Source of the DNA: Escherichia coli
Lineage (GTDB): Bacteria > Pseudomonadota > Gammaproteobacteria > Enterobacterales > Enterobacteriaceae
NCBI RefSeq assembly: GCF_045037415.1
Contig: NZ_CP173438.1
Length of the DNA stretch: 64,000 bases
Strand: one strand, 5' to 3'
The notes below the pieces were generated by a model. It saw nothing but the letters and a program-made list of their open reading frames with translations, did no database searches and was not told where the DNA came from. The number at the start of each line of letters is the position of its first letter. The stretch's first letter is position 1. A program made the position numbers and the translations under genes. Below are positions 60,918-64,000 of this stretch, one piece after another.

Positions 60918-60949
60918 ACCTTACCTCATCAATCGCTTATCGTTATATG

Positions 60950-60995
60950 TTGTGTTGTGCACATCTATCCGTTTAGACGTCCAGATGTAAAGATG
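60950..60995 (-). promoter_or_regulatory. metF promoter with tandem MetJ-box-like 8-mers
   Basis: Minus strand reads ACATCTGGACGTCTAAACGGATAGATGT, resembling repeated AGACGTCT met boxes, just upstream of metF. Confidence 0.6.
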
Positions 60996-61213
60996 AAGGA
61001 AAAGCCGAAGGGCGTCAACCGAAAAATAACCAATGATGGTGAGGAAAAATCAGGGAAGATGAAAAAAACTCATCTTAATTAGAGGCGATAAAAGATTTCT
61101 CTATAGCGCAATCCACCTCGCACGTTTTGACTCATATTCTGACAACACAGCGACACCTGGGCTAATTCGAAAAACAACGTCCTGCCACCGGATGGTGATG
61201 TTAAGGCATCTGA

Positions 61214-61241
61214 TTCGGCCTGCGCCCTCGCGTAGGCCGAA
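61214..61241. repeat. REP-like imperfect palindrome
   Basis: ttcggcctgcg-ccctcg-cgtaggccgaa; no adjacent T-run, so probably not an intrinsic terminator. Confidence 0.35.
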
Positions 61242-61298
61242 TACAGGATCTGCGCAATCAACGGGTAACAAACAGTTGAGTCAATTCAGTGCGCACTT

Positions 61299-62852
61299 TT
61301 ATTTGATATCCTTCACGCGCATACCGTTGAGCTGTTCATCCGTAATGGTGTTGCCCGCTTTGAAGTAATCAACCACCGCGTGATAAACGTAATAACCGCC
61401 CGTTGTGTTACGCGCTTTCCCTTCGGTAAAGGCGGTAAAACCATCTCCACCATCAGCAAGGAAACTCTGAGTAGCAATGTGATAAACCGTCGCATCTTCA
61501 ATGGGTTTGCCATTCAAAGTCAGTGTGATTACCCGCTGACCAACCGGCCTGTTGCTGTCGTACTTCATTTCCAGGCCTTTCGATACCTGTAAAACGCCAT
61601 TGCTTAAACTTGCGCCGTGTTCCATCAGACTGCGTAATTGTTTACCCATGAGTTCCATCGTCACCAGTTCGTTGGGGAACGGAAACGTACTGATGACGCC
61701 GCCCATCGTGATCGCCCCTGCGGGGATCTCATTGCGGATACCACCAGAGTTTGTTAACGCCAGTTGGGTGTTTTTACCCGCCGCTACCAATAAAGCGTCA
61801 GCCGCCAGGTTCCCGAGGGAAGCCGATTCACCATAGGCACGTTTTAATTCAACCGGCGATTGCGCCACCGTTTGTTGCACCACTTCATCAAGCTTTTTAT
61901 TCCAGCCGTCGATCACCTGTTTCGTTTGCGGATCGGGCTTCCACTCGTCAGCGTAAATGGTTTTAAGCTCGAAGTTTTTCACCGTAAAATTATGCGGCTT
62001 CTCTTTGTAGTCGAGAACCAGTTTGCCCACATCAATCCCGCCGCTGTCAGTGGAGAGGATGAGCGTATTGCCGACTTTAATCGGTTCCGGCGTACCCACA
62101 TGTGCATGTCCGGTGATCAAAATATCCAGCCCTTTCACCTGACTTGCCGTCTGAATATCTTTATCCAACGCGCGACGCACATCTGTGCCTCCCATACTGG
62201 ACTGGCGGGCTGGAACACCTTCGTGGATCAGGGCGACGGTCAAATCAACCTTGCCTTTGAGTTCATCGATATAACGTTGTAGCCATTTAATTTCATCGCG
62301 CGCTTCAATACCCACGCGCGTGGCAGCAGATACCGTATCATTAAAGGCAAATACTCCGTGCAAACCAATAACGCCTATTTTCACACCGTCTTTTTCGATG
62401 ATGGTATAGGGCTTATCCCAGAATGATTTACTGCTGTTCTGATAAAAAATATTGCCCTGCACAATAGGGAATTTTGCCTGGCTCAACTGTAATAATGTGT
62501 TGTCCCAGCCGTGGTCAAATTCATGGTTGCCTATTGTGACGGCATCAAACGGCATAGTATTCATAATATCGATAATAGCCTTACCTTTGGTCAGGCTGCT
62601 GATATATGGCCCGGTAAAATAGTCGCCCGCATCAAAAAACCATGTCGCTTTATTTTTTGCTTTTTCTTGCTTAACCAGCGTAGTGATATTTGCCCAGCCG
62701 CCAATATCCCGTTTACCGTCAGCGATCCACGGCACTTTATAAGGCTCGACATGTGCATGGAGGTCGTTGGTATAAATGATGGTGACATCTTTAGCGCAAG
62801 CCCAGAATGGCAGTGTTAATGCGATACCCGCAGCAAGTATTTTAATTTTCAT
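61299..62852 (-). CDS. Secreted bifunctional metallophosphatase / 5'-nucleotidase-family protein
   Basis: 517 aa; N-terminal signal peptide [20 protein letters not shown]; calcineurin-like motifs DLHAH, GDYF, GNHEFD, GHAH; C-terminal 5'-nucleotidase-type domain; not at this locus in K-12 as I recall it. Confidence 0.8.
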
Positions 62853-62984
62853 AAACAGTCCCTTTCAGTGAGATAAAGGATTGCTACATTACGTTCTGAA
62901 AGACTTATTTATGTGAGAGTAATCACATCCGCAGGGGATAGTTGCCGGACAAAATCAACGACCTTGTGAAATCGTTGGTGATAT

Positions 62985-64000
62985 ATGTCGACTCTGTTTA
63001 CGATTAATGCCTGTAAGTCGTTTGGTTGCCGTAATTTAGGGCAGCCAACATCGACAGATTATAGCTGGCCCGACTATCGACTGGGTTATCCGGCACTGCA
63101 CTGTCGGGCATGTGGCAGTTACCCGCCGTTGTTTGACGAGCAACAATTTCGTGACTGGTTGACAGTTCACTTATCTACTTTTGCAACAGAGAAAGGCCAT
63201 TTTTGCCCGGTATGTTATGGCACAGAGACGATTTGTTATGGTCACAATCCACAGGGTTCGCAACGCATTCAATGCCGTAACTGCAAAAAAGTATGGACAC
63301 CCAAACAATATCAGAAAGAAATAACGACTCCCGAAATAATCGAAACGGTTGCTTTGCTCGTGCCATTTCAGGGAGTCAGCAGCGGGCAGAAACTGTATGT
63401 TTTAATCAGTTTTGATGCTCTTCGCGGTAATATTCTTCATCTTTCTACTAATTACACGCAGCATCAGGCTGGAGAAAGTCTGCATTATCGATACAGAGGA
63501 AATGCAGAACCAGAGTTACACGACAATAATATTGTACAACGCGTTGATATGCGCGAAGCACAATTTCTACGCCGCAGTCAGTTTGATGAAATTCAGTATG
63601 GCAGCGCAGCGCTCAAGCGCAATGCCAAAGGCGCTATTCTGCGTCCGGTTATCACTGCACACGGGCATTTCAGAGTACTGAATATTTTATTCCCTACAGT
63701 AAAAACACATGTAATTTCACACGAGTGTTTTTTAAGAGGTGCCATTATTACGGCCTGGGCTGATCTGTTTCGCCAACAGCAAGGTGAAATTTGGTTTATT
63801 GAAGAGGAAATAGCTGACGATACCGATAATATGCCCTGGCGTTTTCAGGGAAAAACTTATCACGGCTGGTGGAAAAATCAGTGGCAACTCTGGGTTCAGG
63901 GAAAAAATCGTAAAATGGTATGTGCATTAACGGGCGGAAAGAGTAGCAAAGCAGAAATGCTCTCTTTAGCAACCAGCAGACATTTTATCGACTGGCTACA
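62985..64000 (+). CDS. Cys-rich zinc-ribbon protein, 3'-truncated by window end (at least 338 codons); function unknown, possibly transposase-like
   Basis: ATG at 62985 preceded by in-frame TGA; frame stays open to position 64000; two CxxC...CxxC clusters (CKSFGC..HCRACG and FCPVCYG..QRIQCRNCKKVW); absent from the ORF track because no stop lies inside the window. Confidence 0.6.
   Translation, partial: MSTLFTINACKSFGCRNLGQPTSTDYSWPDYRLGYPALHCRACGSYPPLFDEQQFRDWLTVHLSTFATEKGHFCPVCYGTETICYGHNPQGSQRIQCRNCKKVWTPKQYQKEITTPEIIETVALLVPFQGVSSGQKLYVLISFDALRGNILHLSTNYTQHQAGESLHYRYRGNAEPELHDNNIVQRVDMREAQFLRRSQFDEIQYGSAALKRNAKGAILRPVITAHGHFRVLNILFPTVKTHVISHECFLRGAIITAWADLFRQQQGEIWFIEEEIADDTDNMPWRFQGKTYHGWWKNQWQLWVQGKNRKMVCALTGGKSSKAEMLSLATSRHFIDWL

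Follow-up and report, generated by a model that had tools for sequence, protein, structure and literature searches.

We analysed a stretch of 64,000 nucleotides from Escherichia coli (contig NZ_CP173438.1 of assembly GCF_045037415.1; this whole stretch is called the window below), in which the DNA upstream of metF differs from that of E. coli K-12 and carries two divergently oriented genes, one encoding a putative periplasmic 5'-nucleotidase and the other a cysteine-rich protein designated here as CysR. With a probability of roughly 0.55, this segment represents an ancestral scavenging module driven by CRP, in which the nucleotidase has a domesticated transposase as its partner. The segment itself is ordinary: it is small and complete, its long form has been published, and its enzyme has, judged by a match in the PDB, been crystallised. 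We found no description of what kind of gene its partner is, nor of the regular pairing of this gene with scavenging operons. Both genes had been noticed in an earlier reading of the letters without database searches (the sequence-only reading), which assigned them to a larger, horizontally acquired island. Its description of the genes was borne out by our searches. The gene at 61299-62852 on the minus strand encodes a secreted 5'-nucleotidase-family protein with Metallophos and 5_nucleotid_C domains, a signal-peptide-like N-terminus and all metallophosphatase motifs, and the divergent Cys-rich open reading frame (ORF), which begins at 62985 and runs off the window in the ORF listing, encodes eight Cys residues conserved in its family.

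In the nucleotidase, Pfam domain PF00149 (Metallophos, E = 4.8e-12) spans residues 24-252 and PF02872 (5_nucleotid_C, E = 5.4e-38) residues 334-477. A pattern search recovered every motif of the dimetal site, namely DLH30, GD76, GNHE108, HEG210 and GHAH248. This domain architecture, the dimetal motifs and the export signal are common to UshA of E. coli, YfkN of Bacillus subtilis and CD73. Identity with an UshA orthologue was ruled out, as the protein scored 151.4 bits against the UshA equivalog NF007109, the cut-off of which is 600 bits, and all 14 NCBIfam families that matched did so below their cut-offs. Since every NCBIfam equivalog cut-off was missed, the protein is classified by its sequence into a separate subfamily of the metallophosphatase/5'-nucleotidase superfamily with an intact metal site. 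The ratio of non-synonymous to synonymous substitution rates (dN/dS) of 0.02-0.13 indicates strong purifying selection. A PDB search yielded a match to 3ivd_A over residues 19-517 (E = 0, 1117 bits), and the crystallised construct of this entry likewise begins at residue 19. Going by this match, the nucleotidase or a near-identical allele is already crystallised (PDB 3IVD/3IVE). The nearest characterised structures besides 3IVD are those of the Thermus enzyme 2Z1A (5e-46) and of the venom/CD73 enzymes. We take 3IVD and 3IVE, both titled 'Nucleotidase', to be structural-genomics entries for c4898 of strain CFT073 with uridine and cytidine. Literature searches returned no biochemical or physiological paper on c4898 or the 3IVD nucleotidase.

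CysR gave only weak zinc-ribbon matches of the IS1/IS1595/InsA type in searches of Pfam, NCBIfam, PHROGs and PADLOC. The NCBIfam family NF050000 was matched with 21.8 bits (E = 2e-4) against a cut-off of 28 bits, PHROGs returned zinc-ribbon 'transposase' entries only, and PADLOC found no defence-system match for either CysR or the nucleotidase. Among 1.84 billion cluster representatives, only 119 relatives, standing for clusters at 50% identity, were detected at E<=1e-3 and the family is therefore small. A Foldseek search of the AlphaFold database placed its members in Enterobacterales and Vibrionaceae, where they are labelled 'cytoplasmic protein', 'InsA N-terminal domain-containing' or 'IS1 family transposase', the last presumably by automatic transfer. 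An alignment of 55 family members was used for profile comparisons. With hhalign, the family profile aligned to InsAB' of IS1 with 96.5% probability over the zinc ribbon and, in longer members, also over the helix-turn-helix (HTH) of InsA. The Pfam domain Zn_ribbon_InsA (PF03811) was detected in nine of the 55 members at E<=1e-3 and was the only domain found. A transposase catalytic domain was detected in none of the 55, DDE_Tnp_IS1 (PF03400) giving no match, and hhalign of CysR against the catalytic part of IS1, represented by one IS1 sequence, returned a probability of 0.2%. A PDB sequence search with the family profile produced C2H2 zinc-finger noise only.

Modelling with AlphaFold2 from the 55-sequence alignment resulted in a CysR model with a predicted local distance difference test (pLDDT) score of 94.1 and a predicted template modelling score of 0.93. 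A Foldseek search of this model against the PDB gave no significant match; the best weak matches were RNase H-like proteins, and in the model the RNase H-like core most resembles DDE transposases and retroviral integrases. The predicted topology comprises strands 118-127, 136-144 and 150-155, helix 183-196, strand 217-219, helix 221-235, strand 241-245 and helix 248-257. Eight Cys residues (C10, C15, C40, C43, C74, C77, C97 and C100) are conserved throughout the family, and conservation down to 20% identity extends to some 30 further positions. R197 and H228 do not vary at all, H246 and E247 hardly vary, and N156, Y168, Y205, W295, W296 and W300 are conserved. An acidic residue in at least 70% of members is found only in columns 144 (D144, acidic in 76%), 201 (D201, acidic in 87%) and 247 (always acidic, Glu in 50 of 55). 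When the predicted topology was compared with column conservation, no conserved acid was found on strand 118-127 or after strand 217-219, D144 and D201 being located elsewhere. In such a model, the chemistry of a transposase has probably been lost. The gene is nevertheless not decaying. It is under purifying selection (dN/dS 0.12-0.21 in eleven pairs), it is full-length in more than 30 species, and it is present as a single uninterrupted ORF in a single copy at a fixed position.

The neighbourhood of CysR genes was surveyed across genera with one genome per species; tblastn mapping gave 36 loci, all of the enterobacterial subfamily. In all 35 loci that include upstream DNA, a divergent 5'-nucleotidase gene stands head-to-head with the CysR gene, at a spacing of 131-144 nt in nearly all of them. 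The same arrangement was found on contigs of E. albertii, Citrobacter, Enterobacter and Klebsiella. More distant relatives were examined one by one. A relative with 29% identity faces a 5'-nucleotidase gene across 128 nt, and one with 25% identity also faces a 5'-nucleotidase gene. The gene of a 34%-identical relative faces those of a NupC-family transporter and a nucleoside phosphorylase (PNP), and that of a 31%-identical relative faces genes for a phosphopentomutase, a nucleoside phosphorylase and a NupG-type symporter, resembling a deoB-deoD-nupG cluster. A 40%-identical relative faces a cut gene of a family that was not identified, and the contig of one further relative was too short to tell. 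Among relatives with readable upstream DNA, the identifiable neighbour is always a nucleotide or nucleoside scavenging gene, down to 25% identity.

The control region between the two start codons showed a mean column identity of 85% in five genera, with conserved blocks in 38 loci, and is more conserved between genera than CysR itself (58-64% identity). It contains a perfect CRP consensus site (Table 1), the TCACA half-site of which is invariant in the 38 loci; a comparable site is recognisable in three distant loci. Its centre, at 62919.5, is 67.5 nt from the ATG of the nucleotidase gene and 65.5 nt from that of the CysR gene. Candidate -10 hexamers read from the sequence are TAATGT (62891-62886, minus strand) and CAAAAT (62950-62955, plus strand), and we infer that the CRP site lies near -41 of both putative promoters in a class II arrangement, with starts predicted near 62879 (minus strand) and 62962 (plus strand). 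Directly upstream of the CysR gene, 43 of the 54 loci fetched, among them nearly all close enterobacterial ones, have the 11-mer AAATCGTTGGT without mismatch and at an unchanged relative position. A hairpin or terminator formed by positions 62956-62977 was considered and rejected as an RNA structure, as its left arm (62956-62961) varies without compensation and its right arm is invariant. This uncompensated variation of the partner arm favours a protein-binding or translational signal, so that AAATCGTTGGT is a candidate operator or translational control element rather than part of an RNA stem. An Rfam search of positions 59700-64000 at a permissive threshold gave nothing relevant.

These features suggest the following working scheme. 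Under carbon limitation, cyclic AMP (cAMP) bound to CRP would switch on both genes from the one CRP site through paired class II promoters. The exported enzyme would then dephosphorylate nucleotides in the periplasm and the resulting nucleosides would be taken up, presumably with the aid of a Tsx-like channel in the long forms of the module described below. CysR would be a domesticated, probably catalytically dead transposase of the IS1 type that serves as the dedicated DNA-binding regulator or sensor of the module, possibly acting at AAATCGTTGGT. The locus would go back to the ancestor of the Enterobacteriaceae and be lacking in E. coli of the K-12 type, its alleles having later been replaced by homologous recombination. 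For the regulator role of CysR, which we deduce from gene context and conserved positions, the odds appear to be a little below even. Slightly more tentative is the wider proposal that CysR founds a new family of transcription factors derived from an IS1-like transposase, having InsA-type zinc ribbons with or without an HTH and a dead RNase H-like core as sensor or oligomerisation domain. Such proteins would act together with cAMP-CRP as local regulators of scavenging operons (5'-nucleotidases, tsx, nupC, deoBD, nupG) in Enterobacterales and Vibrionaceae.

To the left, the first ~150 nt upstream of metF are matched in 5,425 of the 5,426 complete E. coli genomes that form our E. coli sample. 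Sequences of the K-12-like and of the module-bearing type are 98% aligned up to position 61067 and diverge after it. The metF upstream region contains the tandem 8-mers AGACGTCC AGATGTAA AGATGAAG at 60975-60998, which, by their sequence and by what is known of the MetJ operator, we read as met-box-like. When loci of the K-12-like, short and long types were compared pairwise with blastn, the junctions fell at 61067/61068 on the left and at the metL stop codon on the right. Megablast revealed genomes that match 60918-64000 with 100% identity, and one of them, strain USVAST219 (L001), showed the gene order metF, nucleotidase, hypothetical protein (376 amino acids), metL, metB and metJ. In this identical DNA, the metL stop corresponds to window position 64079, about 79 nt past the window edge, and the Cys-rich ORF ends at the equivalent of 64115, 115 nt beyond the window, being convergent with metL and overlapping it by 37 nt. 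The whole insert thus comprises about 3,010 bp (61068 to ~64078), of which 2,933 bp are inside the window, and it stands in place of a 197-nt spacer of the K-12 type, which contains a copy of a repetitive extragenic palindromic (REP) sequence with matches elsewhere in the genome.

The sequence-only reading had assumed that only the first ~2.7 kb of a larger island were visible. This did not hold, as the 100% identical genome has no 10-20 kb of further island DNA past position 64000. The same reading had named the finding of metL just beyond 64000, with the two genes as ordinary conserved neighbours, as evidence that would speak against an island; metL is indeed located there, but the pair is accessory in E. 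coli. Within the last codons of the Cys-rich ORF, at the window equivalent of 64006-64064 (L001:23089-23147), we observed an imperfect inverted repeat of 27 nt with a 5-nt loop. It lies directly 3' of the convergent metL stop and may be a metL terminator embedded in the Cys-rich coding sequence.

The megablast comparison with the E. coli genomes found the pair in 1,840 of 5,426 genomes (34%), and the DNA is foreign to K-12 as the sequence-only reading had stated: 3,577 genomes (66%) have an empty, K-12-like site with the 197-nt REP-containing filler instead. The two-gene short form present in the window was found in 1,180 genomes (22%), counted by the short-form joint, and a long form in 659 (12%), counted by long-form-specific DNA. 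The long form, which is present in ATCC 25922, Nissle 1917 and IHE3034, contains five genes, namely the nucleotidase gene, the divergent Cys-rich gene, two more nucleotidase paralogues and a tsx-like channel gene. It is the region designated GR 31 (metL..metF) in the avian pathogenic and extraintestinal pathogenic E. coli (APEC/ExPEC) strain BEN2908 and other B2 strains, described in the accessible part of the published account as a Tsx-like ORF with three UshA-like ORFs of B2 ExPEC (PMC12928451). There, processing and uptake of nucleosides and nucleotides have been proposed for GR 31 (PMC12928451). The accessible part of that account covers the Tsx-like and nucleotidase ORFs and not the Cys-rich gene (PMC12928451). 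GR 31 and the segment in the window occupy the same chromosomal site and have the same nucleotidase adjoining metF. They differ in size and content: GR 31, a long form of 7.8 kb, includes a Tsx-like channel gene besides three UshA-like genes, whereas the window contains a 3.0-kb form with one nucleotidase and a Cys-rich allele only 81% identical to that of the long form.

The difference between the two forms is concentrated in the Cys-rich gene. The genes katG, metF, nucleotidase and metL are 98.8-99.8% identical at the nucleotide level in short and long forms, as against the 81% of the Cys-rich gene, and the synonymous divergence (dS) is about 1.0 in the Cys-rich gene and 0.04 in the adjoining nucleotidase gene. 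Divergence starts near position 63318, where the zinc-ribbon region gives way to the RNase H-like core (comparison of 63318-64000 with L014:9400-10192). The Cys-rich gene therefore displays a sharp allelic dimorphism inside one gene. When the window strain was compared with the K-12-like strain NCTC9008, nucleotide identities were 94.8% for metF, 96.3% for metL and 97.1% for katG; for core genes of E. coli these values are low, which suggests that the site is surrounded by old linked haplotypes or by imported DNA. Strain AVS0456 of E. coli has a locus, otherwise 100% identical, in which an IS1A element interrupts the Cys-rich gene (L018:3568-5475). This natural knock-out could be used to test the function of the Cys-rich gene. 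A paralogous second module with three nucleotidases, tsx and a 71%-identical Cys-rich gene is located downstream of kdsA in E. albertii, in 'E. coli' SCPM-O-B-8794 and in Escherichia sp. MOD1-EC7003, the latter two carrying both modules; it had no match in the 5,426 complete E. coli genomes.

The ends of the module were inspected for signatures of mobility. The sequence-only reading had pointed out a REP-like palindrome downstream of the nucleotidase gene. The palindrome is real (61213-61242, with a 13-bp stem), but its membership in the REP family was ruled out: the 231-nt non-coding stretch that contains it occurs in exactly one place per genome in 1,832 genomes, and thus it is single-copy and not a dispersed family at the sensitivity of blastn. 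The hairpin is part of the minimum free energy fold, and the whole fold is not better than those of shuffled sequences (z -0.8). It is located 57 nt downstream of the nucleotidase stop and is followed by no T-run and hence is not a canonical intrinsic terminator; it may stabilise or end the nucleotidase transcript. No direct repeats flanking the module were found, and terminal inverted repeats were sought in the E. coli and Enterobacter modules without success. At the module ends there is no tRNA gene, the nearest one being more than 38 kb away, and the module, which consists of two genes only, contains no integrase or other mobility gene. It occupies one place per genome in the 1,840 E. coli genomes carrying it. 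As its ends lack a tRNA gene, an integrase, direct repeats and terminal inverted repeats, exchange of the module is best explained by homologous recombination in the flanks. Two of the ~1,830 module matches were found on records typed as plasmids and not as chromosomes, which could be misassemblies or real transfers.

In other genera, the pair is found at the same site. The order metF, nucleotidase gene, divergent Cys-rich gene and metL was observed in E. coli, E. whittamii, another Escherichia sp. and Pseudocitrobacter, and the pair also lies between metF and metL in at least six Citrobacter species, Klebsiella pneumoniae, K. oxytoca, K. spallanzanii, Kosakonia, Phytobacter, Superficieibacter and Kluyvera, as well as in Salmonella enterica subsp. 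arizonae, where the Cys-rich gene is truncated. Altogether, at least nine genera share this position. In Citrobacter, Klebsiella, Kosakonia and Kluyvera, the guanine plus cytosine (GC) content of the pair tracks that of the host (0.50-0.57), and the proteins form genus-specific clades. The nucleotidases of Citrobacter and Klebsiella are 87-91% identical to the E. coli protein, compared with 89-91% for KatG and 90-95% for MetL. The presence of the same pair at the same site in many genera, together with its host-like GC content, points to an old enterobacterial locus that is missing from K-12-type E. coli, and not to a fresh insertion, as the simplest history suggested by these sequence comparisons.

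Some loci of this survey deserve separate mention. The S. arizonae locus (L052) has fully kept the nucleotidase gene next to its truncated Cys-rich gene. In Kluyvera genomosp. 3 (L051), the Cys-rich gene is truncated or only partly alignable and the nucleotidase is partly aligned. This hints that the partner gene can be lost without loss of the enzyme. The nucleotidase gene of Pseudocitrobacter vendiensis (L019:4317-5868) contained two in-frame stops with the coordinates used, and its tblastn match began about 15 codons late; it is either a pseudogene or the result of a coordinate offset.

An ancestral position of the module in E. coli itself is uncertain, and several observations speak against it. 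The alleles of E. coli and Pseudocitrobacter have a low GC content (0.44-0.47) and cluster with copies at other loci, often accompanied by extra nucleotidases and tsx, which lie beside kdsA in E. albertii and at other places in Enterobacter, Pluralibacter, Silvania and Rahnella. Moreover, E. coli and Pseudocitrobacter are 92-94% identical in the pair and 84-86% in metF and metL, and a search of the K-12-type spacer for a module remnant revealed that none is left. All this could also be read as in the sequence-only reading, according to which some E. coli lineages acquired an islet horizontally, by insertion into the metL-metF junction or by its replacement. The observed AT-richness, which had been estimated by eye and is confirmed by a GC content of 0.464 for 61069-64000 against 0.521 (46.4% vs 52.1%) for the rest of the window, among the lowest 1% of 3-kb windows, and by GC contents at third codon positions (GC3) of 0.52 in the nucleotidase gene and 0.40 in the Cys-rich gene against 0.59 in metF, is in agreement with such an islet. 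The same applies to the presence of the pair in only 34% of complete E. coli genomes, to the clustering of the E. coli Cys-rich alleles with low-GC copies at other sites (Enterobacter, E. albertii, Pluralibacter, Rahnella) and to the two Cys-rich alleles at dS ~1 beside a nearly identical nucleotidase gene. We consider an islet unlikely all the same, since at least nine genera have the pair at this site, several of them with a GC content like that of the host, since the identity of its nucleotidase to those of Citrobacter and Klebsiella is in the range of KatG and MetL, since neither a tRNA gene nor an integrase nor direct or inverted repeats mark its ends, and since the segment stops at metL. 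Of the features of a classical genomic island, deviant composition and patchy distribution are present, and a tRNA gene, an integrase and flanking repeats are not. The true core of the islet explanation is the import of alleles by recombination: horizontal allele exchange at the locus is real. What stood of the proposed acquisition is therefore an AT-rich accessory segment that K-12 lacks and whose alleles have been exchanged; an island of 10-20 kb and its hallmarks did not stand, and a fresh insertion is unlikely.

The role of CysR as a regulator has likewise to be weighed against other explanations. An InsA-like HTH segment of ~70 amino acids is kept in relatives of 420-530 amino acids and is missing from the 376-residue enterobacterial subfamily, where only the zinc ribbons would consequently be left for DNA binding. 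The conserved residues D201 and E247 could form a non-canonical active site, and the presumed loss of the DDE triad was read from secondary-structure topology and column conservation. In addition, a gene that is divergent from the nucleotidase gene and has one CRP site in common with it might just as well encode a co-expressed effector. These points tell against the domesticated regulator, and CysR might instead be a co-expressed cytoplasmic enzyme of the same salvage pathway, such as an RNase H-like nuclease or a nucleotide-processing protein. Its RNase H-like fold also matches the nucleases PIWI, EndoV and NurA, R197, H228, H246 and the acidic residues at 247 and 201 could together form an active site, and both the lack of an InsA-type HTH in the E. 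coli subfamily and the co-regulation suggested by the common CRP site would suit an enzyme. This explanation appears doubtful to us because most family members keep an InsA-like zinc ribbon with HTH, i.e. a DNA-binding module, because local regulators are classically arranged in this way, head-to-head with their target operons, which here are of several kinds, and because no conserved acid is found where the catalytic residues would canonically be, on strand 1 and after strand 4. The fold and the InsA-like zinc ribbon would also be expected of an active transposase of an unrecognised IS1-related element with nucleotidase and tsx as cargo, which would explain why modules occur at different places, such as beside kdsA or an arylsulfotransferase gene, and why some databases label relatives 'IS1 family transposase'. 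Such an element is very improbable in view of the one copy at a fixed site in 1,840 E. coli genomes, the synteny across genera and the lack of terminal inverted repeats in the E. coli and Enterobacter modules; moreover, neither Pfam nor NCBIfam detected a transposase catalytic domain, the expected first and second DDE positions have no conserved acid, and there is no programmed frameshift as in IS1. That the ORF is a decaying pseudogene or has arisen by chance might be supposed from its 3' end, which extends 37 nt into metL, from its GC3 of 0.40, from the IS1 interruption in one strain and from the truncation in S. arizonae. This supposition is hardly tenable given the dN/dS values of eleven pairs, the full-length ORF in more than 30 species, the pLDDT of 94 and the conservation of eight Cys and about 30 other positions down to 20% identity.

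The positions of all features are compiled in Table 1. Elsewhere in the window, the rRNA operon at 19424-24532, between murB and murI, contains tRNA-Ile and tRNA-Ala genes in its 16S-23S spacer (22728-22922). The K-12 operon at the murB-murI position, rrnB, presumably has a tRNA-Glu spacer, and the spacer type of this strain may therefore differ from that of K-12. The small RNA OxyS (132 bits, 35421-35530) and the btuB cobalamin riboswitch (87 bits, 27614-27803) were detected as expected for the region.

Table 1. Location of the module, its parts and the adjoining genes in the window.
Feature	Position	Strand	Basis or remark
katG	57518-59737	minus	ORF listing
metF, methylenetetrahydrofolate reductase; core gene flanking the module on the left	60027-60917	minus	ORF; annotated metF in 100% identical locus
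Conserved metF upstream region; last DNA common to K-12-like genomes	60918-61067		blastn
Non-coding stretch 3' of the nucleotidase gene, forming the left end of the module	61068-61298		contains hairpin with 13-bp stem
Inverted repeat, hairpin with 13-bp stem	61213-61225 / 61230-61242		inverted-repeat search; pattern match unique in window
Putative periplasmic 5'-nucleotidase-family enzyme, 517 aa, WP_000694068.1	61299-62852	minus	Pfam, PDB match, motifs
Divergent control region, 132 nt	62853-62984		conserved between genera; 133 nt in some
Perfect CRP consensus TGTGAGAGTAATCACA	62912-62927		sole perfect TGTGA-N6-TCACA in the 64-kb window vs 0.09 expected
Invariant 11-mer AAATCGTTGGT, 6-16 nt upstream of CysR start	62969-62979	plus	overlaps likely Shine-Dalgarno sequence
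CysR, Cys-rich 'cytoplasmic protein', WP_000105529.1	62985-64000 (full ORF to 64115)	plus	338 of 376 codons in window
CysR putative Zn ribbon 1 (C10/C15/C40/C43)	63012-63113	plus	conserved Cys
CysR putative Zn ribbon 2 (C74/C77/C97/C100)	63204-63284	plus	conserved Cys
CysR RNase H-like core, ~aa 115-260	63327-63764	plus	predicted fold

The module is a clean three-state polymorphism of nucleotide-scavenging capacity. It may bear on growth in nucleotide-rich host niches, the long form being the one described from B2 extraintestinal strains. The role of CysR is accessible to experiment in common E. coli lineages, as natural empty, short and long alleles and an IS1 knock-out exist. As far as we found, CysR is undescribed, and a literature search on transposase-like regulators of nucleoside metabolism yielded nothing relevant. 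Literature searches also returned no description of a regulator derived from an IS1-like DDE element and tied to nucleoside scavenging, and to our knowledge few bacterial transposases of the DDE type have been domesticated as regulators of their host.

Compared with IS1, CysR has an N-terminal four-Cys zinc ribbon homologous to that of InsA and InsAB' and a predicted RNase H-like core. InsA itself is a repressor that binds the ends of IS1. CysR is unlike IS1 in being encoded by a single ORF without frameshift, in its second, extra zinc ribbon, in the absence of an HTH from the enterobacterial subfamily and of a match to PF03400, and in being single-copy and syntenic without inverted repeats. 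With respect to its control, the module resembles the cAMP-CRP (and CytR) regulon for nucleoside scavenging of E. coli, which includes tsx, deo, udp, cdd, nupC and nupG. In the module, a perfect CRP site precedes scavenging genes, and its long forms contain a tsx paralogue; a dedicated divergent partner gene distinguishes the module from this regulon. Domesticated transposases that act as regulators are known from the TnpB-derived TldR repressors, the REP-associated RAYTs and many eukaryotic transcription factors of transposase origin. Like these, CysR keeps a DNA-binding module and a fold of the transposase type at a fixed locus under purifying selection, apparently without a catalytic triad. 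Unlike these, it would have originated from an IS1-like DDE element, and it is associated with nucleotide and nucleoside scavenging operons.

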